NCBI GenBank assembly: GCA_021734945.1 | Contig: JAIPIA010000001.1 | Span: 90,243 to 154,242 of the forward strand | From: Minisyncoccota bacterium | GTDB taxonomy: Bacteria > Patescibacteriota > Minisyncoccia > Phycocordibacterales > CAIZLB01 | Reading direction: 5' to 3' | Length of the DNA stretch: 64,000 nucleotides | In this document: positions 28,704-59,811 of the stretch, piece after piece | Layout: every line of letters starts with the position of its first letter | Position numbering within the stretch: position 1 is the first letter of the stretch | The notes under the pieces: model-generated | Seen by the model: the letters and a program-made list of their open reading frames with translations, nothing else | Told to the model about the DNA's origin: nothing | The model's database searches: none | Position numbers and translations under genes: made by a program

Positions 28704-29432
28704 ATGAATTTAAAAACGATAAAAACAAAATTCACACTGTATATACAGCTTTTTGCCCTTGTGTTAGGTGTTGCGTCATTTGTTCCGCAACGTTCAGATG
28801 CTCTTTTGATACTTCTCATTATTGACCACAATAGTTGTTGGGTGAACCTTATTTGGGGGTGTGATGGTGGCGATGGAGGAGGAGGCGGTGGTGGCGGGAA
28901 TGTGACATATACATATGAGTCAGACTATCCAGGTGGAGGAAGTAGCACATCAGGTGGAGGTGCAACAGCAAGTACTGATCCAGAAGGTAAACCCATCACA
29001 AGAATGACGGATACTCGTGATTCATTAAAGGATCCATGTACTACAGGGGATACGTGTCCTGGTGATGACTTAGGTGTATTGGCTGGAAAGATATCTGTAA
29101 ATCCTGCATACGCAAGTGCTCAAACAGATACATGTCCACTTCTCTGGACTCAAGGTGGTGATGATACAAACAGTACTGTTGTATGTAATCTCGTAACAAA
29201 TGGAACATCTCAAGTGTTGCCAAAGAGTGCTTCTGGTAAGAATACATTCAATGTGCCAATTGGTAGACACGTACTTTCATGTACACGTACAACCTCAGAA
29301 ACTGTAACTAAGTATGGTACAAAGGAGGGTGAGACCACTAAGACTGCTGTTGATTCTCAGACGAATACCTGGTCTAGTACCGAAGAGCACAATATCCGAT
29401 GCTTGGCTCGACCGAATGTAAATGAAATTTAA
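28704..29432 (+). CDS. secreted Gly-run / Cys-rich hypothetical protein
   Basis: 242 aa; signal peptide; GGDGGGGGGGGN run; 10 Cys in mature part; followed by terminator. Confidence 0.55.
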   Translation: MNLKTIKTKFTLYIQLFALVLGVASFVPQRSDALLILLIIDHNSCWVNLIWGCDGGDGGGGGGGGNVTYTYESDYPGGGSSTSGGGATASTDPEGKPITRMTDTRDSLKDPCTTGDTCPGDDLGVLAGKISVNPAYASAQTDTCPLLWTQGGDDTNSTVVCNLVTNGTSQVLPKSASGKNTFNVPIGRHVLSCTRTTSETVTKYGTKEGETTKTAVDSQTNTWSSTEEHNIRCLARPNVNEI

Positions 29433-29590: not shown

Positions 29591-29662
29591 TCCGTGGTAG
29601 CTCAGCGGTAGAGCAATCGACTGTTAATCGATTGGTCGTAGGTTCGATCCCTACCCACGGAG
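29591..29662 (+). tRNA. tRNA-Asn (anticodon GTT)
   Basis: manual fold: acceptor TCCGTGG/CCACGGA, D-stem GCTC/GAGC, anticodon stem ATCGA/TCGAT with loop CTGTTAA, T-stem GTAGG/CCTAC with loop TTCGATC, discriminator G; CCA not encoded. Confidence 0.85.
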
Positions 29663-31327
29663 CAAGTTAGGACAGACCGACGCAAAAACGTCGGTTTTTC
29701 CTTTGTCTACATCATAATTTCTAGGTTCGAACTGTGGGTTTTTGAGTTTTGCTTCTTTGAGGCCTTGAATGAGTATATCCATCCATTTTGTGTTGATAAT
29801 ACTCACTTTTTCTTCATCCCATATTAGGTTCGAACCAAAACGTGAAAGAACCTCTCTTTTGGAGTTTATATTGTCAGATTGCATAATATCCACAAACTCT
29901 TTTGTGAGGTCAGCAATGTTGATTGCTGTGTCAAACCAGCTAGCATCAACTTTCCTTCTCGAACTTGATAAGATAGTTTTGTTTAATTCCTCAAGTGACA
30001 CTTTTCCATCAGCTGGAGATAGTGCTCCATCGGCCATCATTTCGATAATCTTCTTTTTTCGTTTTTCAGCTGTCTCAACTTCGTCTTTTGCATGAGTTGT
30101 CATTGCTTGCTGTAGCTCTATATCTTTATCCTTTAATTCGTGTAGATACTTTTTACTCCACTCGACAAGACTTGGGGATAGTTGTACGTTTTCTTTTGCA
30201 TAATCAACTATGTGTCCCGTTAGTTTATTCTCACTGATGTATTTAGTCTTTAGGTAGCTTTTTCTTCTTGCAACATTGTAGTAATAAACGTATTCAAGAT
30301 ATGTAGGCTTATCTATCTCCATGATCAATTTTCCACAATCAGGACAATTTGTCTTATTTGAATATGCAAACTTTTTCTTACAATCACAAATAACCTGGAA
30401 CTTAATGTCTGGTCCTATAAAATCACCGTTAGGGGCCTTAATAAAACCGGCAAAAGTGGTTACATGTGTCTTTGTCTTTGGGAGGTTTCTGTCCGAAAGC
30501 ATTCTTAAGATCTTGTTGTGCTGTGCTTCTGTTATCACTCTCGGTAAGCTTGCGTTTAGCTCATAACGCTGCCCATTCTGATAAAAGAAACCAGCGTATA
30601 TAGGGTCTTTTAGCATCGTATGAACTCTTGAGATGGCCATAAGAGCTCCACCAATTCTTTTATGTTTTGGAGTGGTTAGTTTTAATTCTTCACGTACGTA
30701 TCGTGCCAATCTATTTGCAGACCAATTACCAGTAAGGAACATGTGAAAAATCCTTTCAACTAGCGGGTATTTGTCTTTATCGACTAGCCACTTTCTATTT
30801 CCTTTCTCTTCGGTCTTATCATTGATAAAACCGATAGCAGCGACTCCATGAGGGTAACCCTTTAATGCTTTAGTCTTTTGTCCATTTTTTACAAAGGCAC
30901 TTTTATCGTCACTATCTCTTTTTGAAAAAAGGAACTCGAGTCCTAAAGTCATTTTGTCGATAGATGTATTGTAGTAAGTTCTTGTAGGTGTTTTAACACA
31001 AAGCAGTTTACCTCTATCCATTGCATCTATAACTCTTGCTCCATCAATCGCATTACGTGCGAGACGGTTCGGATGTATAGCTAAAATTGCATTGATCTCG
31101 CCTTTGTTTATTTTTGAAATAAGGCCGTCGAAAATCTGTCGACCCACCTTAAAAGCACTTTTCTCTTCCTTCAAGTAAAGACAAACATTCAGGTCCATTC
31201 TCACTGAGAAATCAGCAAGCTCACGTTCTTGAGTCTCGATTGACTGCACCTGCTTATCTTCGGTATCACTTGATTTTCTACAATATGATCCAAAGCGAAG
31301 TTCTTTTTCATTGATATTGTTGTTCAT
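29651..31327 (-). CDS. large serine recombinase (resolvase/invertase catalytic domain, recombinase domain and zinc-ribbon)
   Basis: 558 aa; N-terminal YCRKSSDTEDKQVQSIETQ (catalytic Ser region), recombinase zinc beta-ribbon CDCKKK...CPDCGK; last 12 nt of CDS overlap tRNA-Asn 3' end. Confidence 0.85.
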   Translation of the reverse strand: MNNNINEKELRFGSYCRKSSDTEDKQVQSIETQERELADFSVRMDLNVCLYLKEEKSAFKVGRQIFDGLISKINKGEINAILAIHPNRLARNAIDGARVIDAMDRGKLLCVKTPTRTYYNTSIDKMTLGLEFLFSKRDSDDKSAFVKNGQKTKALKGYPHGVAAIGFINDKTEEKGNRKWLVDKDKYPLVERIFHMFLTGNWSANRLARYVREELKLTTPKHKRIGGALMAISRVHTMLKDPIYAGFFYQNGQRYELNASLPRVITEAQHNKILRMLSDRNLPKTKTHVTTFAGFIKAPNGDFIGPDIKFQVICDCKKKFAYSNKTNCPDCGKLIMEIDKPTYLEYVYYYNVARRKSYLKTKYISENKLTGHIVDYAKENVQLSPSLVEWSKKYLHELKDKDIELQQAMTTHAKDEVETAEKRKKKIIEMMADGALSPADGKVSLEELNKTILSSSRRKVDASWFDTAINIADLTKEFVDIMQSDNINSKREVLSRFGSNLIWDEEKVSIINTKWMDILIQGLKEAKLKNPQFEPRNYDVDKGKTDVFASVCPNLLRG

Positions 31328-32026
31328 TTTTTTGTTAATTTTAGCACGCGCCGGGATCTTTTACCTCTGATCGATAGTAAAAGTTATCCTTATATGACAA
31401 CACATCCGGGGCTTCATCACGATGTTTTCTCAAGACCCTTGATGAAGATCAGATTGATACGACTCACATCAGACGGCTGGGCAAGAGATCCCGGAGAGAA
31501 CTTGTTTTCCCAGCTTTCGCATGTGCACCTTATCAACCCTTATTTGTTTTGTAGAGCGAAGTTGTTTAACCAGATGCTCTAAATCAGCTGGTGTGGATGT
31601 GTATTTGTTCTACGCTTATGAGCTTCGGCAAGCAAGGTCAATAAGAACAAGCCAATCTGTTGTAGATCGTTTTGATCCAAGAGGTTTGACTTATCTTCGC
31701 CGATTTCTAGGCGGAGAGCCTCTTTTAAATCTTCGATTGCTTTAGTGCTCAAAGTTTTCATACTTTTGAGCCGGTTTCGTCCCAAGAACCGGCCATTCAC
31801 GGGCTAGGTTGAATGACTGGTTTTTAAGACCAAACACGTCTAGCCCATAGTATGAGTCTACGAAATAGCACTCAAAACTCCGAGATCAATATCCAAAATT
31901 ATCTTTATTTAACAACGTATTTTTTATGTGTATTGACACCACTTGCATAAAACAAGAAATACTATCTCTTTCTCTACCAATAAAAATAAGCTAGAATGTA
32001 ATTACAACTAAATAAGCCGACCTAAC

Positions 32027-32165
32027 CCATCGAGAGAAATCTCGGTGGTATGGTCAAAAGTCCAGTAACGATCAAAGAACCCATTATGTGGGGTTGTCGT
32101 TACTGGCCATGCAGGGAAACTTGCATGGAGGCCGCAAGGTCTCACTCACGTAGTGGGCTTTTTGG
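32027..32165. ncRNA. candidate structured RNA element (four consecutive hairpins, two GNRA tetraloops), function unknown
   Basis: CCATCGAGA-GAAA-TCTCGGTGG; CCAGTAACGA...(nested AACCC/GGGTT)...TCGTTACTGG 10-bp perfect stem; CCATGCA-gggaaact-TGCATGG; GAGGCC-GCAA-GGTCTC. Lies within the 720-bp non-coding region and directly upstream of a membrane-protein gene. Confidence 0.3.
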
Positions 32166-32172
32166 TTGCCAA

Positions 32173-32511
32173 ATTATGAAAAAGATAATAGGCATTTTGA
32201 AGAAAGATAAAATAGGGAGACTAGATTACATAATTGCTCTAGGCACATTTCTTGTGCTGGAAGTAGTCATTTTCAGCTTCATCTTCTTGCTTGTCGATCA
32301 CATCAGTAACGACACATGGTTATTTATTTTCGGTACTTTGCTTATTACATCTCTAGGTACTCTTGCTTGGATAAATTCAAAGAGGATGCGAGACGCTGGA
32401 AGGAATACTAAGGAGCTTTTTTACTACTTTGTCATCCCTTTATTCTTTGCTGCCCATAGTATTTTCCTTATCTTTTTAACCAGCAAAGATGCACATCTAC
32501 GACAAAAATAA
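32173..32511 (+). CDS. small 3-TM membrane protein (island-encoded)
   Basis: ORF track gives 32050..32511, but the N-terminal 41 aa overlap the structured non-coding element; ATG at 32173 (MKKIIGIL...) followed by hydrophobic helices is the likely start. Confidence 0.45.
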   Translation: MMKKIIGILKKDKIGRLDYIIALGTFLVLEVVIFSFIFLLVDHISNDTWLFIFGTLLITSLGTLAWINSKRMRDAGRNTKELFYYFVIPLFFAAHSIFLIFLTSKDAHLRQK

Positions 32512-32592
32512 AAATCTAAAGGCAATTTTGGACTTCAAAGACGATAAACCTATTTTGACCTTTAACCCTAAATCGTGGGTCAATAAATTAAG

Positions 32593-32823
32593 GTGGAAGT
32601 TGAGGGTAATACTAAAAAAACTACTGCCATGATTACAGCAGTATATGTTCTAGCTATCACAGTCCTTTGCTTTCAGATCTTGGTAGTACTTTTCGTTATC
32701 TTATCCCTATACAACCTTATTAAGGTTTACGTAAAGACCAAAGAGAAAGAATACCTAGCTGTAATTATATTGGTACTCGGAATTATAGGACTTTGTCTTA
32801 TTTTCCCAGATTTGAGGCCTTAA
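32593..32823 (+). CDS. small 2-TM membrane protein
   Basis: 76 aa, two hydrophobic helices; overlaps 3' end of convergent HTH gene by 26 nt. Confidence 0.35.
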   Translation: MEVEGNTKKTTAMITAVYVLAITVLCFQILVVLFVILSLYNLIKVYVKTKEKEYLAVIILVLGIIGLCLIFPDLRP

Positions 32824-33217
32824 CCCAGCCATTACTTTTTGCCATTTTATCAATACGTTCCTGGAGTTCATCATCGCTTAAACCCTCAAAGCCTGTCCGC
32901 ATAGGTTCTGGAGTCTCAACACGTACTCGGTTAGTGTATTCGCTCGGGTAGCGTCTCTCAAGCCACCAGGCGGCCGCTTGCCAGGTCTTTTTACTAGCTT
33001 CTTTAATTATCTTTATATGCTCCATCTTGTACTCGATCTCTTTTTGCCTCATCTGTTCTGAGAAATCTGAGTCTCGTTTCCAAAAAGAAAGAGTGTCTTC
33101 GCTAATACCAGCAAGAGCAGAAGCGTCCCGCTGGCTAGCGCCATGACTGATAGCGTCTAGGATGATCTTAATGGTTTTTGGGGTAGCTTTTGTTTTACCT
33201 TTAAGTATTTGCGTCAT
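32798..33217 (-). CDS. phage-type helix-turn-helix protein (terminase-small-subunit-like / phBC6A51-type HTH)
   Basis: 139 aa; HGASQRDASALAGISEDTLSFWKR HTH and AAAWWLERRYPSEY motif typical of this phage HTH family. Confidence 0.55.
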   Translation of the reverse strand: MTQILKGKTKATPKTIKIILDAISHGASQRDASALAGISEDTLSFWKRDSDFSEQMRQKEIEYKMEHIKIIKEASKKTWQAAAWWLERRYPSEYTNRVRVETPEPMRTGFEGLSDDELQERIDKMAKSNGWVKASNLGK

Positions 33218-33254
33218 GAAAGAATGATAACAAAACTACCCTATATTATCCGAG

Positions 33255-36200
33255 CTATTTTATATTGAGACTTTCCCACGCAGAGATGATTTGTTGCATT
33301 CTGGCTCCTGCAAGTGGCATTGATGCAAAACGAATTCTGATCACGCTGCGAATAAGTTCAATTGCTGTTCGTGCATCTCTTTCAAAGGTCAAAGCATCAA
33401 GAACGGTCATAATCAGACCTTCACGCTCCTTATCGGTAACCGGCTGCTGCCATAGTAAAAACATGAAGTCAGCTAACACACCAACGACTGATCTAAGCTC
33501 CATTTTTACACCTTTAAGCGTGGCCAAGACTTCTTTGAATGGACTTTGGTTTTCCCATTGTGCTTGCCTTGCTGCCTCAATCAGAGTAGTGCTTTCAAGA
33601 GTAACGTGCTGATATCTGCGAAGAACCAGCTTGATGACTGCATCCCAGTATTCTGAACTCGAGATCTTCTTGTCGATAAGAAAGTGCATCAAAATTGCTT
33701 GCGTCCAAACGCCGTTCACTTTGAAGTCATCGTTCTTTGCATACATTCTAGTGGCCAAGTCTTCAGCGTACAACGAGCACTCGTTTTCTTTTGCGATAAG
33801 TATTGTTTCAATTGCATACTTTCCGAGCACTTTTTCCATCTCTTCAAACTGTTGAGTCTTCGGCAATGTTTTGCATGGTGTTAGAGTACAGTTTTCACGT
33901 ATCCATTTTTTCAGAGACTCAAGTGCTTCCACTTCGGTCGCAGCTTGTTCAGGAGTTTTTTCGTCTCGAATAAAGCTACCATCCATTTTTCCTAAAGTAG
34001 TAGATCCTTTTGAGCCCATCCCTTTTCTTTCTGAAATTGCCTCGTTCAGAGTATCTATGGTTGATTGTGTTACAAGAACTTTCTTGAATTTATCTTTGAA
34101 CATTTCAAGCAAGCCAAGTTGAGATAGAGTGAGTAGGGATGTAATGTCTATGGCTATAGTGTCGTTTGTTTTGATTGAGTCGAGGGCGACTTGACGCTCT
34201 TCAAGGGTGCCAACGCAAGACCTTATACCTACGCTTGCTGAAAGGCCATACCATACATCAACAATGTTCTTGTTAATTACACTTGCGAAAGCACCTACCG
34301 TGAGTTTCATGTCAATATAAAGTTTCTCTGCTTGAGAGACATATTCACTGTGATTTGAGACAACCTGCAAAACTTTATCGAGACTCTCTTTTGTCTTTTC
34401 CTCAGAGCTTACATCTACTGAAAAGCGTTCAAGAGACTTTTGTTCGGAAAATCGTTCCGGCATCAGTCGCATAGACTCATGAAGTGCATGCACGTATTTG
34501 TTTTTGATCTCAGTGATTTTAACCACAATTTTACTGATGGCCCCTTCAGACACAACAACATCATCATTAACCGATCTGCCCAAAAGCTTTTCACCAATTC
34601 CAGAAGAAACACCTATTTCATTCAAAGCCATGCTGAGATCTTTTCGGTCTTCAAGTAGGTAGCATGTGATCTGATCAGCGTCGTTTTTCGTGTATACAGC
34701 ACTAGATATGACTGCAGTTTTTGGGATCTCAAGTAGTTTCTCAAGTTTATGGTCTTGCGCCAAAAAGATAGTCATATACTTGGCATGTGCTTCGCCGTCA
34801 TCGAAGTACTTCCGTCTCAACTGATAGGCGGCTTCGAGTGATTTTTCTACCTTATTCCTTTCAGCGTATAGCTGGGCCAACTGGAACCCCGGGTTTATAG
34901 GGAGTTGGGTTATATCAATATCTTCATCGAGAAACTTATCAAGCTTTTCAAACTCATCAAGTCGAAACCAGTGTGTAGCTAGCCGAGTTTTTATTTCCAG
35001 GTCGTCTGGATGAGATAATAAGTATTTTTCTGCAGCAGCAGAAGCAGCAGACAGATCTCCGATGTTCTCGAGAATAGATAGCTCAATCTGCAACAGAAAC
35101 AAACCCTTGTTTTCGTCTGGTAGACGCTTAAACAAGCTTAGTGCTTTATCAACCTCGTTGGCTCTGTAGTACGAATAGAAAAGATTATCTAGGTGAGGTG
35201 ACGGAACTCTGGGGTCAATTATCTTTTCATACAAAGGCCATGACTGCGCGTATTTTTGCATGTTATACAAGTCGTCTGCCAAATTGATGACAATGTGAGC
35301 AGGGGTCATGTCAGTAATATATCCGTAGGCCTCATCAAGTAGATTGCCCGCCGCTTCCTTGTTACCAGCAAACCTTTCGGTACGGCTTGCGGCAATTAAA
35401 TTCTCGATATTCGTTGGATCAAACGATCTAAGTTTATCGACGATTTTTTTTGCTTTCTCATAATTTTTCTCCTTGATATAAACATGAACAAGCATGCGTT
35501 CTTCCTCGGATCGTAATTCAGGCGGGAGGTCGTCGCTGAACGATTTGATCAGTGTCTCCCGTGCCTCTACTAGGTTATTTTCATCAAAATAGATACCAGC
35601 AAGAACATATGCGGCTTCTGGAACCTCTTTTTTACCTACCACAGTCTTGAGTATCTCAATGGCCTGCTTTCTCTCTCCCTTTGAGTAGAGCATGAACGCC
35701 TGCTGTTTCAACATTGCCGCATCTTCAGGCTGGTAGCGCACCGCGCTGGCCATATCAGCATTAGCCTTATCCATTTCACCTAGTAGCTTATAAGCTGTTG
35801 CTCGATTGGCGTACCAAGAGGGACGATAGCTTATACTTTCAGAATTAGAAAGACTGTCTATGGCTTCCGAAAGTAATTGAACAGCTTTTTCTATTTTTTC
35901 CTTGTCTTCTGGGATAAGTTGCATATTGTTTGCGACTTCATGCTTCTGCATAAAAGTCTCAAGGATCGTGGATGCAAGATTTGCTTGAATGTCAGGGTTC
36001 TTCTTTCTGATTTTTATAGAGTCTTCCATTGCAATCTCAAGCCACTTTATAGATGATGCGAGATCACCGCGTTCACGTGCTGCATGCGCAATGGTAAACG
36101 CCACATCTTCTGACTTTCGAAACTCTGCTGGTATATCCTTCAGTATATCTTCAAGCGCTTGAGTCTTTGGGGAGCAGTTTATCAGAATGCCGATTGCTCG

Positions 36201-37532
36201 TGTGCTCGCTGGGTTCTTGTCCAAGACTTTTCTAATGTATGTCTTACACTCTTCTGTCTGATCGAGCATGAGATGACCCAAAGCTCTGTTACAAAGTGAT
36301 TTTTCATCTTCGGGATTGTATTGGTGAGCTTGTATAAAAAGTGACCCTGCCTCTTTTTCTCGATGTAGAGATGCTAATGCGGCGGCCTTGTTCGTTAGTA
36401 TTCGAAACTTAGAGATGTCGTTTGCACTGCTCCAGATCCGCTTCTCCAGACCCTCAAGAAAGTCCAGAGCTTCTTTCGGCTTCATATTGTTGATCAAATC
36501 TCTTCCGTGATCGATCTCAGCGGCATGTTCACTCGCGATTGCAGTAGTGTCAAAAACCATCTGAGCTATTTCCTTTTTTTCTGTTGTGTTAGCGGCAACA
36601 GACTCATTTATGAGAGCAAGACCGTCACCAACCTTTTTTTCAATGTTGCCGAGCTTTTCCGTAAAAGCATCAGAAAGAGAAGGATCGACGTTCGAAGAGG
36701 CTAATGCCGGGTAGTATTTTGAGGCAACATTTCCAAAGTTCCCAAGTTTTTCGAGTATGTCATCCCAAGAGAAGACGTGAACGGAAAACATTCCCTTTGT
36801 TGCGTGCTCCATTGAGATCTTCAGTGCCGCTTGTTGTAGCGACGTGTCTCTTTTACCAGTGTATGCAATAACGAGTTCTGTAAGAGGAGGGTTGAATTTT
36901 TTTGCTTCATCGACAATATCTTGAATATCGCTCACTGATAAAGCGTCAGCAGTTTCATTGCTTGTCGCATCCTTCTTCTTGCACTGTATTGCTCCAAGTT
37001 TTTGTGTCTCTTTAACTTTACCTAAGATGTCTATTCCGTTCTGTCTCTGTCCTGAACGACCATATCTCACTAAGTTGTGATCGTTCCAAATCTCTTGCCA
37101 TAAATCAGCAGAAAGTCTTTCAAATTTCTCCCATTCTCTTGGAGGAGGGACTTGCCACTGGGCAATATCAACAGGACTCGAAGATGTAGACTTTGGCTCA
37201 TTCCCGATAGAGCTGTCTATAAGTTTTTGCAGGCTTAAAATGAAATCGTTCCAGGTCATTTCGCCTTTGTACCAAAGAATACAGATGTCGGTTCTGTGCC
37301 GGAGGACGCGCATGAAGGTTTGCCATGTGAAGCCTTTCGCCTTGAGCTGACTTTTCAGGTTATCCCAGAGGTATTTCGGCAGTTTGTTGCCTGTCCAGAC
37401 GATAGAAGCATCGTCGCTGCTTTCAGGGGAAGACTGCTTCATAGATTGCATCAACGCTTTTAGGTCCAAAGGTTCAGGTGGAGTATTTATTTTCATACCC
37501 CCAGTATATGGGGTATAAAAGTAAAATACCAT
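33255..37532 (-). CDS. 1425-aa multidomain protein: N-terminal Mrr-like PD-(D/E)xK restriction-endonuclease-fold domain, long TPR array, C-terminal PIN-like(?) domain
   Basis: aa about 134-262 match the Mrr_cat pattern (FE.L..LW...GRSGQ.QNGIDI...IQCK...ELVIAYTG, FSWDDIL); aa about 350-1000 tetratricopeptide-like helical repeats; C-terminal DTIAIDITSLL plus later acidic residues suggest PIN-like fold (weak); no Walker A found. Confidence 0.8.
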   Translation of the reverse strand: MVFYFYTPYTGGMKINTPPEPLDLKALMQSMKQSSPESSDDASIVWTGNKLPKYLWDNLKSQLKAKGFTWQTFMRVLRHRTDICILWYKGEMTWNDFILSLQKLIDSSIGNEPKSTSSSPVDIAQWQVPPPREWEKFERLSADLWQEIWNDHNLVRYGRSGQRQNGIDILGKVKETQKLGAIQCKKKDATSNETADALSVSDIQDIVDEAKKFNPPLTELVIAYTGKRDTSLQQAALKISMEHATKGMFSVHVFSWDDILEKLGNFGNVASKYYPALASSNVDPSLSDAFTEKLGNIEKKVGDGLALINESVAANTTEKKEIAQMVFDTTAIASEHAAEIDHGRDLINNMKPKEALDFLEGLEKRIWSSANDISKFRILTNKAAALASLHREKEAGSLFIQAHQYNPEDEKSLCNRALGHLMLDQTEECKTYIRKVLDKNPASTRAIGILINCSPKTQALEDILKDIPAEFRKSEDVAFTIAHAARERGDLASSIKWLEIAMEDSIKIRKKNPDIQANLASTILETFMQKHEVANNMQLIPEDKEKIEKAVQLLSEAIDSLSNSESISYRPSWYANRATAYKLLGEMDKANADMASAVRYQPEDAAMLKQQAFMLYSKGERKQAIEILKTVVGKKEVPEAAYVLAGIYFDENNLVEARETLIKSFSDDLPPELRSEEERMLVHVYIKEKNYEKAKKIVDKLRSFDPTNIENLIAASRTERFAGNKEAAGNLLDEAYGYITDMTPAHIVINLADDLYNMQKYAQSWPLYEKIIDPRVPSPHLDNLFYSYYRANEVDKALSLFKRLPDENKGLFLLQIELSILENIGDLSAASAAAEKYLLSHPDDLEIKTRLATHWFRLDEFEKLDKFLDEDIDITQLPINPGFQLAQLYAERNKVEKSLEAAYQLRRKYFDDGEAHAKYMTIFLAQDHKLEKLLEIPKTAVISSAVYTKNDADQITCYLLEDRKDLSMALNEIGVSSGIGEKLLGRSVNDDVVVSEGAISKIVVKITEIKNKYVHALHESMRLMPERFSEQKSLERFSVDVSSEEKTKESLDKVLQVVSNHSEYVSQAEKLYIDMKLTVGAFASVINKNIVDVWYGLSASVGIRSCVGTLEERQVALDSIKTNDTIAIDITSLLTLSQLGLLEMFKDKFKKVLVTQSTIDTLNEAISERKGMGSKGSTTLGKMDGSFIRDEKTPEQAATEVEALESLKKWIRENCTLTPCKTLPKTQQFEEMEKVLGKYAIETILIAKENECSLYAEDLATRMYAKNDDFKVNGVWTQAILMHFLIDKKISSSEYWDAVIKLVLRRYQHVTLESTTLIEAARQAQWENQSPFKEVLATLKGVKMELRSVVGVLADFMFLLWQQPVTDKEREGLIMTVLDALTFERDARTAIELIRSVIRIRFASMPLAGARMQQIISAWESLNIK

Positions 37533-37603
37533 ATTGCTTGTCAGATAAAACTGTGTCCTGGTTGCATATCTATCTCAATTTAACTTTTTGAGTTAAAGTA
37601 AGG

Positions 37604-38197
37604 GTGTTTATGGCGACTACAACCCCAACAATATGGACTTTCATTGATGCGTCACCTTTTTGGTCGGCTTTTTTTGCACAGCTTCTTGCTACTCTTATTG
37701 TTGTTATTATCGGTTCTGTTGTAATTCCACCAATACTAAAGTGGAGGAAAAGAACAAAATTAAAGTTTTTCAAAACCCATACCTTTTTTAGTAAGAACTT
37801 TGAATTAACAGAGTCATCTGACGGAGAGTATGAGGCCACACTTCATTTATCTATAAAAAACTTTGGATCTGAAACGGTAGAGCGCTTTTATTGGGAGATG
37901 TATTTCCCAAAAGAGATGTCTGTTGAATTGGTTACCAAACCTCCTTACCCTCGTTACTTCACCACAAATCATCAGAAAGGAAATAAATACTTGAGACATT
38001 ATGGTTATGTAGAGTTACCGCTCTTTTCACTTGATGAAGTTGATTTTGTATACGAAATAAAAGTTAAAATTAAAGAAAAGAAAAAGATCAAGATATTCTA
38101 TTTCTTCAACAGCGATAATGGCGTATCGCCAGCATGGACTTGGCTTGCTATTACTCTTAAGAAACATCATTGGCTAAAGTTTTTGGTTCTTGAATAA
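37604..38197 (+). CDS. hypothetical membrane-anchored protein
   Basis: 197 aa; N-terminal hydrophobic helix, Lys-rich C-terminal part; last gene before candidate attR. Confidence 0.45.
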   Translation: MFMATTTPTIWTFIDASPFWSAFFAQLLATLIVVIIGSVVIPPILKWRKRTKLKFFKTHTFFSKNFELTESSDGEYEATLHLSIKNFGSETVERFYWEMYFPKEMSVELVTKPPYPRYFTTNHQKGNKYLRHYGYVELPLFSLDEVDFVYEIKVKIKEKKKIKIFYFFNSDNGVSPAWTWLAITLKKHHWLKFLVLE

Positions 38198-38336
38198 CTC
38201 ATTTCCTCTATTATAGCTATTCGGACAGCGTCCCAGGTTCGGAGCAGTAAAAGAAAGAGTGCCAGCACAAGCTGGTGCTTTTTCTTTTGCATGACTGTGT
38301 GAATACTGTGATCGAATTTCGACCAAGGGGAGGGGT

Positions 38337-38352
38337 GATCCATACCCACGGA
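38337..38352. repeat. candidate attR: 16-nt direct repeat of tRNA-Asn 3' end (15/16 identical)
   Basis: GATCCATACCCACGGA vs tRNA 29646..29661 GATCCCTACCCACGGA; a second weaker copy CCCACGGAGATAAGTT at 39540..39555 resembles tRNA end plus its downstream flank. Confidence 0.45.
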
Positions 38353-38466
38353 ACTCGTCTGTACATAATAGAAATAATGTTATATAAATGTAATGTTCTT
38401 TTGCGTCAGTAAACAATCAATAGGCTTAAAGGAGAGCCTGGTACGATTTGTACCGAATATGTCAGT

Positions 38467-38685
38467 ATGCATTTCAATACAAACGAAATCATGATTCCAC
38501 TCACTTCGTGGACTGCGTTCGACAGAGGAGAAATTATTGAAGCCAATTCGCCAGATGGTATTACTCTTAAGGTGGGAGATACAATCTGGTGGGTATGTGC
38601 TCAGTATGATGGTACGTGTAGCGTTGTGGAAGCAAAATCGACTGTGCCAGGAAGTACTGTGAAGATCAAAAAACTGGCGAATTAA
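38467..38685 (+). CDS. small hypothetical protein
   Basis: 72 aa ORF in otherwise non-coding stretch; no motif. Confidence 0.3.
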   Translation: MHFNTNEIMIPLTSWTAFDRGEIIEANSPDGITLKVGDTIWWVCAQYDGTCSVVEAKSTVPGSTVKIKKLAN

Positions 38686-38889
38686 AAAGCTACCAACGAA
38701 AGCAGGAGGTCACCTCTACTCGTTGGTGGCTTTTCTGTTTTATATAAAATACTATATAAGGTGATTTTTTTACCCTAAAACTTTTCTGAACGAAAATATT
38801 TTTTGTATTTTTATTTTGACACCTAATAATACATGTGTTAATTTATTTCCAGACTGACAATCCCGTCAGCCCGAACAAAGGAGGTTCTT

Positions 38890-39462
38890 TTGAAACCTGA
38901 TATTCTCTGCAGTGTTTTGGCAGGACTTCTCAGTGTCCTCGCCTTCGGCATCTATAATTGGCAAACTTTCCAAGGACAAGTCAGCCCTAACATCACTTCG
39001 TGGGCAGTGTGGAGCTTTATGACGCTCCTCAACTTCACTTCCTATAAAGCAATGACAAAGGATGGCTGGAAAAGTCTTCTTCCGACCATTAGTGGTATCC
39101 AGTGCATTCTCACCTTTGTGCTCGCTCTCTTCCAAGGGCAACTCAAAGTAATTGGAATGAACGACGGTATCGTCCTCGTGGTCGGCATCACGGCAAGTTT
39201 GTTGTGGTGGAAGCTTAAGTCTCCAACAGTCACGAACATGATGCTCCAGCTTGGCATCACCATAGGTTTCATCCCGACGTTTCAAAGTGTCTGGATGCGA
39301 CCTCAAAGTGAAATCGCCCTTTGCTGGTTTCTGTGGACTGTCTCGTTTGTGTTCCAAACTACCGTGGTCATTCAGCGGTGGAAAGAACAAAAGCGAGACC
39401 TTGTCTATCCAATCAATTGCCTTTGGCTTCATCTCGCTGTGGCACTGCTGGCTCTTCGGTAA
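38890..39462 (+). CDS. hypothetical multi-TM membrane protein, GC-rich gene
   Basis: 190 aa; TTG start 8 nt after a strong RBS AAAGGAGG; 5-6 TM helices; noticeably higher GC than genome; antisense 218-aa ORF rejected. Confidence 0.55.
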   Translation: MKPDILCSVLAGLLSVLAFGIYNWQTFQGQVSPNITSWAVWSFMTLLNFTSYKAMTKDGWKSLLPTISGIQCILTFVLALFQGQLKVIGMNDGIVLVVGITASLLWWKLKSPTVTNMMLQLGITIGFIPTFQSVWMRPQSEIALCWFLWTVSFVFQTTVVIQRWKEQKRDLVYPINCLWLHLAVALLALR

Positions 39463-39649
39463 TAACCCACTCAACAGGATACCCCTGCTTGCAGTGGGTT
39501 TTCCTTTTATATAAGTAAACAAGTTCTAATATCCTCAAGCCCACGGAGATAAGTTGTCAGACAATTTGTGAGGTGTATCATTAAGTCAGATTTAAGCGTT
39601 TAAAACCTGCGGAGTTAACATCAACCCACAATACAGAAAGGAGAACTTA

Positions 39650-40561
39650 ATGAAAATCTTTTATGATAGCACTTACGATTTAGAAGGTTACGACACCACA
39701 AGGAAAGCTAAATGGATCTATGATTCTCTGTGCCAAAACCCAATCAGAAATGTCGAGGTCATAAGTCCTCCATTGCTGGATGAGACGCTCTTAAAAAGAG
39801 TTCATTGTCAAAGGTATATAAACACAGTGAGGTCAGGATCACCAATCAGACTTGCTGAATCGCAAGGTCTTCGTTGGTCACCTGATCTTTGGAGATCTGT
39901 AACTGCTTCCACTATGGGCGTAGTAGCTGCTGCACAACAATCATTGAATGATGGTGTTTCTGGTTCATTATCGAGTGGATTGCATCATGCACAGTACGCG
40001 CGTGGAGCAGGATACTGCACGTTCAATGGTCTTGTGGTAGCAGCAGAGCATCTCCATCAAGAAGGAGTTGAACATATTCTCATTCTTGATTTGGATGCCC
40101 ATTTTGGAGGAGGTACAAACTCACTTCTTGTCAAAAGGGGTTATATCCATCATGTTGATGTATCAGTCAGCAGGTTTGATAGGTATCCTGTGTGTCCTTG
40201 TCAGGCTGGCACGAATCCTCGTCCTTTCAGAACAGCTTTGTTGATTACTAATTCCGATGAGTATCTTCGATCAATTGAAATCTGCCTTGAAAAGATTGAG
40301 GAATTAAACATCAAGTTTGGCGCTTGCTTATACAACGCTGGTGTGGATCCACATGAAAATTGTATGGTAGGAGGAATTGATGGAATCACGACTGATACCC
40401 TGCACTGTCGCGATCAGATGGTTTTTGAATGGTGTAAGAGACGGGGAGTACCTATTTCATTTGCTTTGGCTGGCGGTTATATAGGCACACAGCTGTCAGT
40501 GGAGACGCTTGTTGGCTTGCATCGAGGAACGATTGAAGCGGCAGCTAGGACTATTCGTTGA
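39650..40561 (+). CDS. histone deacetylase (HDAC)/acetoin-utilisation AcuC/acetylpolyamine amidohydrolase family protein
   Basis: 303 aa; HDAC motifs GLHHAQYARGAGYCTFNGL and ILILDLDAHFGGGT (variant of D.D.HHGNG); strong RBS AGGAGA; GC-rich. Confidence 0.8.
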   Translation: MKIFYDSTYDLEGYDTTRKAKWIYDSLCQNPIRNVEVISPPLLDETLLKRVHCQRYINTVRSGSPIRLAESQGLRWSPDLWRSVTASTMGVVAAAQQSLNDGVSGSLSSGLHHAQYARGAGYCTFNGLVVAAEHLHQEGVEHILILDLDAHFGGGTNSLLVKRGYIHHVDVSVSRFDRYPVCPCQAGTNPRPFRTALLITNSDEYLRSIEICLEKIEELNIKFGACLYNAGVDPHENCMVGGIDGITTDTLHCRDQMVFEWCKRRGVPISFALAGGYIGTQLSVETLVGLHRGTIEAAARTIR

Positions 40562-55945: not shown

Positions 55946-56878
55946 TTAAGCAATATAATTCTCAAAATCTTTCCAAGTCATTTCTTTTTTACCTTCAGGT
56001 ACGACTCGTAATATTTCCATTGTTTCGAGTGCTGTATTCCATGAAGCTTCCTTAACTTTTACCCGAATATTTACACCACCATCTACCGTTCCATCTACTC
56101 CTTTACTTGCTCCACCTTTATGTGCAAAAAAGAAAAGACCAGGCCATTCAATGAGAGCATTGTATTTGAGAAATGTATTCCAGCCAGCCTCGCCGGTTAG
56201 TTCATCGAGCGTAATAAACCCGTCTTGTTTCTCAATTTTTTTAGTAAAAGTAGCATTCTCATGAATCTGCTCGGTTAGTTTTAATTTTCCAGAAATATAT
56301 CCCTCTAATGAGTCTGTAAGAATGTTTGCACCCTTTAGCGCTAGGTATTTTTCAAGTTCAGGGTATGGAAGTGGCCATCCTGGGATTTTTTCTTCATGCA
56401 TCGCAACTATTGGACCGTGATCCATTTCTTTATCCATTTGTATGATACTTACTCCTGTGTATTCCATGTCTTGAATGATAGATGTTTGAAGAGGTGTTGC
56501 TCCACGAAGTTTAGGTAAAAGTGAAGGGTGAACATTGAGTGCTCCGTGTTTAGGTATTTGCAAAAGGGCTTCGGGAATTATTTTTCCATACGATGCCACT
56601 ATAAAAAGATCAGGGCTGAGCATCTTTAATGTTTCAATGGTATTTTCTTCCTTTAATTTTTCAAATTGAAAGAAATTAACTCCGTGTGAAAGTGCCCATA
56701 TCTTGAGAGGTGGGGAAGCCATCTCCATTTTTCGTCCGGCAGGTCTGTCTGGAACTGTCACTATTGCACAAGGTACAACGCCTCGCTTTATAAGTTGTTC
56801 GAGCGCATATATAGAGAATTCAGATGTGCCAAAATATATTATATGTGTATCGGTACTAATTTTGGAGTTTTTAGTCAT
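55946..56878 (-). CDS. fmt: methionyl-tRNA formyltransferase
   Basis: IIYFGTSEFS N-terminus, formyltransferase motif HGALNVHPSLLPKLRGATPLQ, C-terminal Fmt domain; ORF track start 56944 is an upstream extension, Met at 56878 (MTKNS...) is more likely; ends 4 nt after def. Confidence 0.85.
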   Translation of the reverse strand: MTKNSKISTDTHIIYFGTSEFSIYALEQLIKRGVVPCAIVTVPDRPAGRKMEMASPPLKIWALSHGVNFFQFEKLKEENTIETLKMLSPDLFIVASYGKIIPEALLQIPKHGALNVHPSLLPKLRGATPLQTSIIQDMEYTGVSIIQMDKEMDHGPIVAMHEEKIPGWPLPYPELEKYLALKGANILTDSLEGYISGKLKLTEQIHENATFTKKIEKQDGFITLDELTGEAGWNTFLKYNALIEWPGLFFFAHKGGASKGVDGTVDGGVNIRVKVKEASWNTALETMEILRVVPEGKKEMTWKDFENYIA

Positions 56879-56882
56879 AAGA

Positions 56883-57629
56883 TTATTTTTTCTTCGCAGA
56901 AATCGCAGAACTTTTTTTACTTCTGTTTTGTTCTTTAGGATCAACCTCTTCTAGGTCCTTCGCTTTATCAATAAACAGAATACCATTTAAGTGATCAACT
57001 TCATGTTGAAAGATATGAGCTAATAAGCCGCCAGCGCCTCTCTCAAAAGCTCTACCGAATTGATCGTAGGCTCGAATAGTTACTTTTGTAGATCGTCTAA
57101 CTTTTCCGTATACCCACCGCACCGATAGACATCCTTCTCCTTCCATCCATTTTTTCTCTTTTGATTCTTTTGTCAGTACAGGATTTATAAAAACAAGGTC
57201 ATCAATAACGGTTTGTGAGCTTGCAACTGTAGGTATGGCACTTTTTACTGATTCAGTTTTTGAGGAATTCTTTGTTGTTCCGTCCGTAGTGTCTGTTTCA
57301 GAAGATTTTTGACTTACTTTTATATCTTCTCCATTTGTTTTGTGAGTAGAAAAGATCTTTTTTGAAACAATAAAAATTCGCAGGGGGATACCAATTTGAG
57401 GTGCAGCAAGTCCGATGCCATCTTCTTGAGAATCCAAAGCCAATTTCATATCCTCTATAACTTGCTGTATTTTTGCAGATTTTATTTCAGATAATGAGAT
57501 TTCATCGGCCACCTGTCGGAGTGCAGGATGTTGACCCTCACTTACAATTTGAGGTACATGTCCTTTTTTGACAAGGATTTCCTTCTTTGCAGGTAGTTCT
57601 TTTTTAGAATTTTTTGAATCATTTTTCAT
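56883..57629 (-). CDS. def: peptide deformylase (long form with Ser/Thr-rich insertion)
   Basis: 248 aa; motifs GIGLAAPQIG, EGCLSV, HEVDHLNG; about 55-aa low-complexity insertion and Lys-rich C-terminal tail. Confidence 0.85.
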   Translation of the reverse strand: MKNDSKNSKKELPAKKEILVKKGHVPQIVSEGQHPALRQVADEISLSEIKSAKIQQVIEDMKLALDSQEDGIGLAAPQIGIPLRIFIVSKKIFSTHKTNGEDIKVSQKSSETDTTDGTTKNSSKTESVKSAIPTVASSQTVIDDLVFINPVLTKESKEKKWMEGEGCLSVRWVYGKVRRSTKVTIRAYDQFGRAFERGAGGLLAHIFQHEVDHLNGILFIDKAKDLEEVDPKEQNRSKKSSAISAKKK

Positions 57630-57669
57630 ATGTAGTGTGTATATGGTGTATTCTGCATTATATCGTTAA

Positions 57670-59811
57670 CTAGAGCAAGCTCTCAGGGTTCACATGTACA
57701 GAGTATTCATGAGGAAGACTGAGGAGAAGCGCTCGTAGATGCTCATCAGGCCAATCTTTTTTGTCTATAGAAAGTAACATATGTAGTGTTGATTTTCCTT
57801 TGGCCCCAGGTACAAAAGCAGGGAATACAAGCATTTCAAATTTTGCATGTGATTGCTTTTCACATTCTTCGAGAAGTTGTTGGAGCCGCTTCATCTTGGT
57901 TGTAGCGCCCGAACGAGTATCTTCGATTGTTATTTTTATATGAGTAATAAATGGTGGATAATTGAGCATTTTTCTCATAGAAAGTTCCTCCCTGTATAAA
58001 CTGAGTAAGTTTCCTGACGCAATATGTTTAAGAACAGAATTTTTAGCATTTCGAGTTTGAATCAAAACGTATTTTTCAGTTTTTTCTAAGATACGCAAAA
58101 TTGTGTGAGTGATACGTTCATTGATTTTAAAATCTGGTATTGAGAAAAGACTATCAAGAGAGGCAATGGCGGAATATTCAATCTGAGGGATAAATGCCAA
58201 CGAACTTTCCGTACCTAGCAAAATCCCATCAGAACTATTTTTAAATTCTGCAATAACTGACTGAGCTTGTTTATCAGTCTTAACCATATCTTTATCTAGT
58301 CTAAAGATTTCACGTTTTGGAAAATATTTTTTAATTTCATCAGCAACTGTTTCTATTGCGATACCAAGGGTTATGAGTTTCCAGCTGCCACATACTGTAC
58401 AAGCTTCAACAGCACTCCGTTCCGTTCCACAGTGGTGGCATAGAAAAAAACGATTTGGATTTATATCTAAAGAGTATTCGTTGCCACCAGTTTGGTTCTG
58501 TGACTCATGTCCGTTTGAATTTTGACCAGGTGCAAACGCTATCGGCGCAGATTTTTTTTGGTGAAGCACTATAGGTGCTTTGCATACTTGGCACTCAACA
58601 GTATGCCCACAGTCTCCACAAATAGTTTGAGGAGAGAGACCTCGTCGTGCCGTAAAAATAAACATTGGTAGTGATTTTTTGCCTGTGTACTCAATCATTG
58701 AATGGAGCTCCTCTGAAAATATTTGAAATCCTTTTTTATCATCTTTACTTTTTTCACGTTTAGTTTCGCGAACCGTATCATCTTGATTTGTTTGACTTAT
58801 TGACTCATTTTTATGTTTATCATCTTTTTTGTCTGAAGACATATCGATGATAATGAGATCTGCGTCTTTTTCAACTCGATAAGAAATAGGGAAGAAGTCA
58901 GCTATCTCACCAACTTCTCGACGGTATAATGTCTCAACTCGAAGTAAGGTGTCTCCATATATGAGTCTAGAGCCCTGTAGTTTTGCATATGTCTCAATAT
59001 AGTCTCGAAAATCGATATACGGTGTACGAATAGCAGAGTATGCTCGTGAGGATTCTCTTTCTAAAACAATTGTTTGAATATCCATTCGTGGAATAGATGC
59101 AAAAAGAGGAGTAGTAATAATAAGAACAGGGTGCTCAGTTTCGAGAGATTTTTTCCAGAGTTCAATTTGTTTCTTTTTACTTAAACTGCCATGTAGAACA
59201 ATGACATAGTCTTCAATACCTTTTTGCAGATTTTTGTGTAGCTCTTCAGCAGACATAACTGTTGGAGTGACAATGAGCACCGACCTCTTGCGGGCAAATT
59301 CTTCACGTACAATACTTTTGTATGTACCCATTCTGTCTTCTGTATTTGTTTGAAAAACTAAAACATCGCTCGTAATTCCTAAATTATTAATACCTATTTC
59401 TGAATCATTCTTTGCATTTTTTGAAGCCTCTATTTTTTCTGAACGAACTTTAGTCGTAGAAGATTCTTTCGAAAGAGCATCTTGTAAAATAGCATCAGGA
59501 ATACATGATTTGAGAACACTACCAAGTGGTACTGCATATACCTCAGACATTTTTACACATGCACGAATACATTCTGGTTTGACCACATGAAGTTCTTTTG
59601 TCTTCTCAATTTTACGAGTTACAAAAGAAGCTTGTTTAATGTTTGCTTTCGCATGACTTGCCGGTGTGACAGTTCCAACGAGGGCGGGGATAGTTCTTCC
59701 ACGAAGTGGTACTTCTATGATAGTCCCAATATCAAAAGTATGAGAACTCCAGTAGGTGAGTTCATCTTTGAATGCTCCTCTGATGATTGGATATACGGTT
59801 AGGATGTTCAT
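57670..59811 (-). CDS. priA: primosomal protein N' (PriA)-like helicase, apparently degenerate
   Basis: 713 aa; N-terminal 3'-DNA-binding-like domain, two CxxC pairs (CGDCGH...CQVCK; CHHCGT...CTVCGS) as in PriA Cys-rich region; no canonical Walker A GxGKT found; low-complexity Lys/Asp insertion. Confidence 0.65.
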   Translation of the reverse strand: MNILTVYPIIRGAFKDELTYWSSHTFDIGTIIEVPLRGRTIPALVGTVTPASHAKANIKQASFVTRKIEKTKELHVVKPECIRACVKMSEVYAVPLGSVLKSCIPDAILQDALSKESSTTKVRSEKIEASKNAKNDSEIGINNLGITSDVLVFQTNTEDRMGTYKSIVREEFARKRSVLIVTPTVMSAEELHKNLQKGIEDYVIVLHGSLSKKKQIELWKKSLETEHPVLIITTPLFASIPRMDIQTIVLERESSRAYSAIRTPYIDFRDYIETYAKLQGSRLIYGDTLLRVETLYRREVGEIADFFPISYRVEKDADLIIIDMSSDKKDDKHKNESISQTNQDDTVRETKREKSKDDKKGFQIFSEELHSMIEYTGKKSLPMFIFTARRGLSPQTICGDCGHTVECQVCKAPIVLHQKKSAPIAFAPGQNSNGHESQNQTGGNEYSLDINPNRFFLCHHCGTERSAVEACTVCGSWKLITLGIAIETVADEIKKYFPKREIFRLDKDMVKTDKQAQSVIAEFKNSSDGILLGTESSLAFIPQIEYSAIASLDSLFSIPDFKINERITHTILRILEKTEKYVLIQTRNAKNSVLKHIASGNLLSLYREELSMRKMLNYPPFITHIKITIEDTRSGATTKMKRLQQLLEECEKQSHAKFEMLVFPAFVPGAKGKSTLHMLLSIDKKDWPDEHLRALLLSLPHEYSVHVNPESLL

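Follow-up and report, generated by a model that had tools for sequence, protein, structure and literature searches.

The DNA analyzed in this study, a 64,000-nucleotide stretch of contig JAIPIA010000001.1 from a Minisyncoccota bacterium (assembly GCA_021734945.1) that is referred to below as the window, contains a copy of the LOOT RNA (Rfam accession number RF03000). As listed in Table 1, the RNA is encoded on the forward strand; on one side of it are a small conserved gene, the gene of a large serine recombinase, and tRNA-Asn, and on the other side is a co-oriented gene for a membrane protein. A reading of this region made from the letters alone (the sequence-only reading) had described a structured RNA candidate with four hairpins at positions 32027 to 32165. 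All four hairpins are present, and cmscan against Rfam identified the candidate as LOOT RNA: positions 32019 to 32143 of the plus strand match RF03000 with 89.1 bits (gathering score, 46.4; E = 1.4e-15), and the match spans model positions 1 to 121 of 121. The Rfam 15 scan covered the whole window and returned two matches, the tRNA-Asn (29591-29662) and the LOOT RNA. In a permissive cmscan (E ≤ 1) of positions 31300 to 32700, nothing was found except LOOT and a chance CrcZ fragment, and no riboswitch or immunity-RNA family was detected; the CrcZ match (31949-32003; 14.9 bits; gathering score, 95) was rejected as noise from A-rich sequence. The window element is a genuine further copy of a known orphan family and represents no new class.

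Table 1. Positions of the LOOT RNA, its structural parts, and the neighboring genes in the window
Feature	Position	Strand	Description
LOOT RNA core	32019..32143	+	RF03000 match; P2, P3, and P4 covary in 55 sequences
P1	32019-32022/32052-32055	+	Rfam helix; with receptor-like internal loop UAAC/UAU
P1a	32027-32035/32040-32048	+	9 bp, GAAA loop
AAAA linker	32056-32059	+	conserved, unpaired
P2	32062-32071/32097-32106	+	10 bp; encloses the apical hairpin
Apical hairpin CCCAU-UAU-GUGGG	32080-32092	+	inside P2
P3	32108-32115/32120-32127	+	8 bp with one G-U, GAAA loop
P4	32128-32133/32138-32143	+	6 bp, GCAA loop
P2 apex CCCAUUAUGUGGG	32080..32092	+	P5 5' strand; alternatively the apical hairpin
3' tail CUCACGUAGUGGG	32145..32157	+	P5 3' strand; outside the Rfam match
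A-rich tract AAAGA	32074..32078	+	precedes the apex; can pair with the U-tract
U-tract UUUUU	32159..32163	+	directly after P5; terminator-like 3' end
-35 TTTCTC	31969-31974	+	weak
-10-like hexamer TAGAAT	31992..31997	+	LOOT promoter
+1 motif ACAACTAAATA	32004..32014	+	family consensus ACAAYUNAAUA; probable transcript 5' end
Downstream gene	32176..32511	+	111-aa membrane protein, weakly DUF805-like
Small conserved gene	31579..31800	-	divergent from LOOT, upstream of the recombinase
Large serine recombinase	29651..31327	-	558 aa; Pfam Resolvase and Recombinase domains
tRNA-Asn(GTT)	29591..29663	+	integration target; ARAGORN and Rfam tRNA matches

The LOOT fold and its relatives

The LOOT RNA motif stems from the survey of Weinberg et al. 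(2017, Nucleic Acids Research [NAR] 45:10811; PMC5737381), the main text of which, its supplement aside, contains no discussion of LOOT. Rfam lists the family as a metagenome-based RNA of the small RNA (sRNA) type (PMC7779021), and an earlier description gives it six helices with about 43 bp (PMC7657543). No functional study of LOOT was found in the searchable literature.

All six Rfam helices (P1, P1a, outer P2, inner P2, P3, and P4) are formed in the window, and the structure line of cmscan agrees with the single-sequence fold. Three pairs of inner P2 are noncanonical in the alignment to the model, where the window sequence makes its own 5-bp apical hairpin. The most conserved bases of the Rfam consensus are CCUAA and AUGG around P1a, the AAAA linker, the GAAA loop of P3, and the GNAA loop of P4, and all of them are kept in the window (CCUAA at 32021-32025, AUGG at 32050-32053, and AAAA at 32056-32059 as unpaired bases; the P3 loop at 32116-32119 and the P4 loop at 32134-32137). 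The core of the window element thus shows no difference from the Rfam LOOT. P3 had been described as a 7-bp stem by the sequence-only reading; the stem itself is there, and it is longer by one pair, a G-U pair being among its eight. The same reading had held the region to be more structured than expected by chance, and this is borne out by a minimum free energy (MFE) of -73.1 kcal/mol for positions 32015 to 32170 compared with -44.3 ± 3.9 kcal/mol in 200 dinucleotide shuffles (z = -7.36), none of which folds as well. The abundant G-U pairs confine the fold to the transcript of the plus strand.

The internal loop between P1 and P1a, CCUAAC...UAUGG in the window, shares 10 of 11 bases with the 11-nt GAAA-tetraloop receptor (CCUAAG...UAUGG) known from group I and II introns and RNase P. 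The two halves stand in the same strand order, flanking P1a, and a GAAA loop is available on P3; the window differs from the canonical receptor by C in place of G, and most LOOT members read CCUAAA...CAUGG. The loop thus resembles the receptor, the P3 loop is its candidate docking partner, and a tertiary contact between the two is plausible.

Relatives were collected from species-representative genomes with a degenerate pattern of the unpaired conserved bases, which fixes CCUAA, YAUGG, AAAA, GAAA, and GNAA. The promoter, P5, U-tract, A-tract, and context features reported below lie outside this pattern. In the genomes, 57 loci match, 55 of which are LOOT by inspection, and all 16 relatives tested pass the Rfam gathering score with 79 to 100 bits. 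The matches in Aquimarina (L016) and Peptococcaceae (L041) are due to chance and fail Rfam. Among 96 matching metagenome stretches, 77 are new and unique, and 76 copies could be analyzed; L133 of this set looks like a chance match. Neither a narrower first pattern nor the final pattern matched any IMG/VR viral contig, which indicates that the LOOT elements are not recognized phages. The hosts of the 55 genome copies are mostly metagenome-assembled genomes (MAGs) labeled Patescibacteria (Saccharibacteria, Parcubacteria, Microgenomates, and others), and a few MAGs carry other or unspecific labels, e.g., "Gammaproteobacteria". Four MAGs contain two copies each (L006/L032, L036/L043, L034/L055, and L013/L050). 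Covariation among homologs, which the sequence-only reading had named as a check on the fold, is found in P2, P3, and P4 across 55 sequences, with P3 and P4 paired in 97.7% and 100% of cells, respectively.

Helix P5, the U-tract, and the promoter

A further helix, P5, lies beyond the region matched by the Rfam model, which ends at P4 (32143). In the window, the P2 apex and the 3' tail form 13 contiguous pairs, and family-wide the 13 to 16 nt past P4 are complementary to the P2 apex. The seven core pairs of P5 are paired in 95.3% of cells in the 55 sequences, and double-sided changes occur at all seven, one of which reads AU 29 times and GC 26 times and is never unpaired. None of 500 shuffles reaches the observed values, and sliding the partner by one to three columns reduces pairing to 40 to 47%. 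The covariation of P5 is as strong as that of the Rfam helices, and RNAalifold predicts the helix unaided. Duplexes between apex and tail have a mean energy of -24.0 kcal/mol, compared with -10.7 kcal/mol for shuffled tails, and cognate partners reach a mean of -22.2 kcal/mol, compared with -12.3 kcal/mol for noncognate ones. The pairing is reproduced in 75 of the 76 metagenome copies, and apex/tail sequences of at least four unrelated types keep it.

In the window, G32157 is the last base of the 3' strand of P5; a single C comes next and then UUUUU, so that the U-run begins within the 0 to 2 nt from the helix that mark an intrinsic terminator. As counted by script, a run of at least three U residues stands right after P5 in 55/56 genome copies and 75/76 metagenome copies. 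A terminator scan calls the local hairpin at positions 32141 to 32157 together with CTTTTTGGTT. The loop of an intrinsic terminator hairpin is typically 3 to 8 nt long, whereas the strands of P5 are about 52 nt apart and span P3 and P4; the alternative local hairpin of the tail has merely 5 to 6 bp.

The pairing of apex and tail is extended by the A-rich tract 5' of the apex, which pairs with the U-tract in 88% of cells (alignment columns 122-126 and 219-223); among 8 sequences with a G in the U-tract, the A-tract carries C in 4 and U in 2. The apex is also complementary to itself (mean, -6.0 kcal/mol; mean z, -1.75), and the tail is much less so. Nested MFE folding of the core with the tail gave results that disagreed between loci, since P2 and P5 either exclude each other topologically or form a pseudoknot; it was therefore dropped, and constrained two-state energies were used instead. 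The Rfam fold with a free tail and a nested fold with extended P5 and an opened P2 base have a mean energy difference (ddG) of 0.0, and the gap lies within ±5 kcal/mol in 50 of the 55 sequences.

In 23 of the 55 genome loci, including L046, L026, L051, L027, L035, L012, and L054, a further segment complementary to the tail directly follows the U-tract (z < -2 against shuffles); it is absent from the window. This segment can make a hairpin with the U-tract in its loop, and some loci have a second U-rich run, which is a clean U7 in L054. It may be a second switch layer or a tandem terminator.

Upstream of the RNA, the sequence-only reading had correctly placed a -10-like TAGAAT at 31992, which occupies positions 31992 to 31997 and belongs to a sigma70-type promoter that recurs in the family. 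A simple promoter scan of the window did not call this site, the -35 element of which is weak. When 35 loci are anchored on the +1 motif, positions -12 to -7 read T(0.69) A(0.74) t a a T(0.83), G is found at -14 in 51% (a frequent TG extension), and T is found at -35 in 77%, within a T-rich -35 region. The +1 motif starts 6 to 7 nt past the -10 hexamer and 10 to 27 nt ahead of LOOT position 1, i.e., its distance is fixed to the hexamer and variable to LOOT. Its strict form, ACAAYUNAAUA, occurs in 35 of the 56 loci and is nearly confined to this position within them. No pairing partner was found for the motif; a pairing of ACAAC with GUUG after the U-tract in the window was rejected because it is not conserved in other loci. 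Possible roles of the motif are those of an operator, an initial-transcribed signal, or a 5' tag of the RNA.

Downstream genes and the integrative element

The gene that follows LOOT begins with the ATG at 32176, 12 nt past the U-tract, and not at 32173 as the sequence-only reading had it. Its 111-aa product has three transmembrane-like segments and a Pfam DUF805 score of 21.8 bits, which is below the cutoff of 25.7. An ATG open reading frame (ORF) of at least 30 codons follows the U-tract on the plus strand in 54 of the 56 genome loci at a median distance of 32 nt (interquartile range, 20-42), and 68 of the 76 metagenome loci have a same-strand ORF at a median of 39 nt. These ORFs are too near the U-tract for a promoter of their own, which implies that the downstream genes are reached by read-through; the gene at 32176 is, judging from this arrangement, probably cotranscribed with LOOT in the same manner. 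The gene upstream of LOOT is usually divergent, so that LOOT lies at a strand switch and its promoter heads the plus strand block. In the window, the 720-bp noncoding region of the sequence-only reading shrinks to a gap from about 31800 to 32176, since the minus strand ORF at 31579-31800 is a conserved gene. Its product matches L019_3 (1e-7) and L053_4 (3e-4) by blastp, and the gene of the latter directly adjoins the recombinase of L053.

The 45 downstream proteins are heterogeneous and include S8 and trypsin-like peptidases, PG_binding_1, DUF805, zinc ribbon, and TnsA-like proteins, and many without a Pfam match. The sole trait common to them is a hydrophobic N-terminus of the signal-peptide or membrane type, which by a heuristic count is present in 65 to 68% of the downstream ORFs and in 16% of the other ORFs in the loci.

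The island in the window extends from the tRNA-Asn to about 40 kb, an integrative element of about 10 kb, with limits estimated from the G+C content (0.39-0.42 within 30000-40000 compared with about 0.35 in the rest of the window). The stop codon of the recombinase lies inside the tRNA-Asn, with a 13-nt overlap with the tRNA 3' end, and the island appears to supply this end. A tRNA-Asn also adjoins the recombinase in L014, L027, L029, L049, and L053. A search for direct repeats found no convincing att repeats flanking the island, as expected for serine recombinases. Large serine recombinases are encoded in 29 of the 56 genome loci and, among metagenome loci, in 15 of 24 with at least 1.5 kb on both flanks and in 9 of 13 with at least 3 kb. 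Other genes of the backbone encode rolling-circle Rep, Prim-Pol/AAA primase-helicases, ParB-methylase, HTH_17 Xis-like, AbiV, and Schlafen-type proteins. From this gene content, the LOOT loci are assigned to integrative, replicative mobile elements.

Several further observations concern the window and its relatives. A gene of the island (33255-37532, minus strand) encodes a 1425-aa protein with TPR repeats, a region like the GreA/B C-terminus, and a PIN domain (PF20698 PIN-TPR-GreABC, 3e-25), and its N-terminus has a weak match to Mrr-type nucleases. A small helix-turn-helix gene (32798-33217, minus strand) adjoins it, and this is island cargo of the conflict or defense type. Just before the tRNA, an ORF at 28704-29432 (+) without a Pfam match has a signal-like N-terminus and a poly-glycine run (GGDGGGGGGGGN). 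An identical recombinase is encoded in one other assembly only, L058 (Logan SRR12088351 contig, 134,801 bp), which ends at the tRNA-proximal end of the recombinase, i.e., breaks at the junction of island and tRNA. In the metagenome loci L150 and L151, a same-strand serine recombinase ends 39 nt before LOOT, unlike the usual divergent or downstream layouts. Outside the island, three adjacent housekeeping-type genes at 55946-59811, including that of a PriA-like helicase, are syntenic with the Saccharibacteria MAG L003 (37-46% identity); this synteny was the sole hint to the phylum that the window itself gave, and tRNA-Asn identity was uninformative in this respect. Further genes of the window code for a xanthine/uracil permease and for an ammonia-lyase acting on aromatic amino acids (histidine-type).

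Proposed mechanism and alternatives

With some reserve, we favor the reading that LOOT is a leader acting in cis, at which part of the transcription terminates to give a short RNA and the rest continues into the cargo genes. A cis-regulatory leader had been among the options of the sequence-only reading, and the conserved promoter, the terminator-like 3' end, and the same-strand ORF that follows in nearly all genome loci favor it. What is added here outside the Rfam match (the promoter with its +1 motif, P5, the U-tract, the leader position, and the mobile-element context) is, like the family membership, demonstrated and is new relative to the Rfam match only. In the proposed mechanism, the rightward transcription unit for the cargo of an element inserted at tRNA-Asn would have LOOT as its 5' leader. 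Transcription would probably start at A32004 from the TAGAAT promoter, and the nascent RNA would first fold into P1/P1a, P2, P3, and P4. The emerging tail would then invade the P2 apical hairpin and pair with the apex to form P5, which, followed by UUUUU, would be built like an intrinsic terminator, with the 5' strand kept inside the sensor domain. If P5 formed in time, transcription would stop and a structured RNA of about 160 nt would be released; if the apex were kept in the apical hairpin or in the tertiary fold, the polymerase would read through into the gene at 32176 and beyond.

Several points weigh against this model. Termination by P5 and the U-tract, and its regulation, are predicted from the anatomy of the sequence, and a terminator "loop" of about 52 nt that holds two hairpins is atypical. 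A static H-type pseudoknot could combine P2 with the P5 core and end a stable sRNA, a state beyond the scoring of ViennaRNA, and the Rfam type of LOOT is "Gene; sRNA". The simple model does not account for the additional tail-complementary segment after the U-tract in 23 of the 55 loci. The downstream genes share no common pathway, so that no ligand can be deduced from them, and the conservation of the bases fixed by the search pattern in the 132 relatives exists by construction. Three features favor a switch over a static pseudoknot without amounting to proof: the two folds are balanced in energy, the apical hairpin is selected separately, and the extension of P5 by the A-tract and U-tract is sterically incompatible with an intact P2. 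The heterogeneity of the regulon argues against a pathway metabolite as the trigger and is compatible with a global signal, a factor encoded by the element, or partitioning by kinetics alone.

The main competing explanation, which we regard as less likely and nevertheless plausible, is that of a small RNA standing on its own, with action in trans or a protein-binding or structural role; the P2-P5 pseudoknot and the U-tract would then be its constitutive 3' end, and the downstream gene would be expressed by leakage. In a variant, the RNA would be an immunity or dual-isoform RNA like those of P4 CI and Gifsy-1 IsrK, and the apex would pair with tails of transcripts from the same or an incoming element. 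The Rfam family type, a unit with its own promoter and terminator-like end, and a compact-looking fold with GNRA loops and a receptor-like loop all speak for an independent RNA, and P4 CI RNA and IsrK provide precedents (PMC4825925). Apex and tail also fall into specificity classes, as seen in the energies of cognate and noncognate duplexes, and the copies are clearly orthogonal in two of the four two-copy genomes (cross-duplexes, -9.5 to -14.6 kcal/mol; cognate duplexes, -21 to -22 kcal/mol). In the other two, however, the pairs cross-react. Intramolecular pairing of apex and tail is kinetically favored over pairing in trans, and no conserved single-stranded seed region is evident. A co-oriented ORF about 32 nt past the U-tract in 54 of 56 loci would be unexpected for an independent sRNA gene, and owing to this constant leader position the cis model fits better. 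A recombinase-associated RNA had been a further option of the sequence-only reading, and the recombinase association holds at the level of the mobile element; as a direct partner of the enzyme, e.g., a directionality or guide factor for integration or excision, LOOT is very improbable. A tight subclass does have a recombinase of about 430 aa that starts 180 to 210 nt upstream and is divergent, and in eight genome loci LOOT heads a codirectional block ending in a recombinase. Overall, however, the distance varies from about 40 nt to 5 kb, the orientation is variable, and about one-third of the well-flanked loci have no recombinase. Serine recombinases are not known to require an RNA. Those parts of LOOT that vary and covary are paired among themselves, none of them with att-like DNA, and the association is equally explained if LOOT is a cargo-side part of one family of integrative elements.

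A structure acting at the DNA level, i.e., a single-strand replication origin, an oriT, or an attachment-site structure, is still less probable. Some LOOT elements encode Prim-Pol or a rolling-circle Rep of the REP_ORF2-G2P/RepSA family (6 loci), and single-strand origins are likewise multihairpin and orientation-specific. Most loci, however, have no Rep gene for rolling-circle replication, the element has a conserved promoter at a fixed distance and a U-tract after it, and GNRA tetraloops and a tetraloop-receptor-like loop are RNA tertiary motifs. The att-proximal structure of the sequence-only reading finds no support either, since the abundant G-U pairs occur on one strand alone and the att junction lies at tRNA-Asn, on the side of the recombinase gene that faces away from LOOT. 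The same reading had counted an open frame through the element as a possible refutation, and one frame is indeed open from the ATG at 32050, as it would be if the element were an N-terminal coding extension of the downstream ORF (32050-32511). We give this explanation almost no weight: only 22 of the 56 homologs have a stop-free plus strand frame across the core, in inconsistent phase, the substitutions follow base-pair covariation, and the downstream proteins are mutually unrelated.

In the favored reading of a cis-acting leader, LOOT resembles terminating riboswitches and attenuators (e.g., the ON-type purine riboswitch) in being a structured 5' leader with tertiary-contact motifs and a gene immediately downstream, in embedding the 5' strand of the terminator in the sensor domain, and in having two folds of similar energy. 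A GNRA tetraloop with its receptor is also used by the c-di-GMP-I riboswitch. A conserved structured domain of the 5' untranslated region is joined in LOOT to a terminator-like platform that shares the apex, as in a riboswitch, whereas the putatively regulated genes do not share a pathway or point to one ligand and no Rfam riboswitch matches. LOOT differs further in that an internal hairpin about 52 nt away supplies, with its apex, the 5' strand of the terminator and in that P5 is pseudoknotted with P2, not nested. The P4 CI RNA derives from a leader and terminates transcription by pairing with complementary sites (seqA/seqC) in the same operon, and Gifsy-1 IsrK exists as a terminated sRNA and a read-through mRNA (PMC4825925). 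LOOT shares with them a mobile-element leader with a structured RNA and an exposed segment complementary to a later site in the same transcript, here the covarying apex and tail; in these systems, transcription terminates prematurely, and a single promoter gives rise to short and read-through isoforms. The resemblance to RNAs of the P4 CI and P1 c4 type is one of logic only, since LOOT has no sequence or Rfam relationship to an immunity-RNA family, and its partner segment, at a distance of 52 nt within one molecule, abuts a U-tract.

LOOT is an orphan structured RNA of the 2017 Breaker/Weinberg survey that is almost confined to the Candidate Phyla Radiation (CPR)/Patescibacteria, bacteria that are hard to culture and in which gene regulation and mobile elements are poorly known. 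The results point to a better LOOT covariance model, about 35 nt longer at its 3' end, and the leader position, the unmodeled P5, and the secreted or membrane cargo on serine-recombinase elements together provide a mechanism that is testable by mutation. We tentatively suggest, as a possibility and not as the expected outcome, that LOOT represents a leader class specific to CPR/Patescibacteria integrative elements, in which a sensor for a small molecule, a second messenger, or an element-encoded factor would gate the release of the apex into the pseudoknotted terminator and thereby switch secreted and membrane cargo, and whose terminated RNA might act in trans as an immunity or compatibility determinant.

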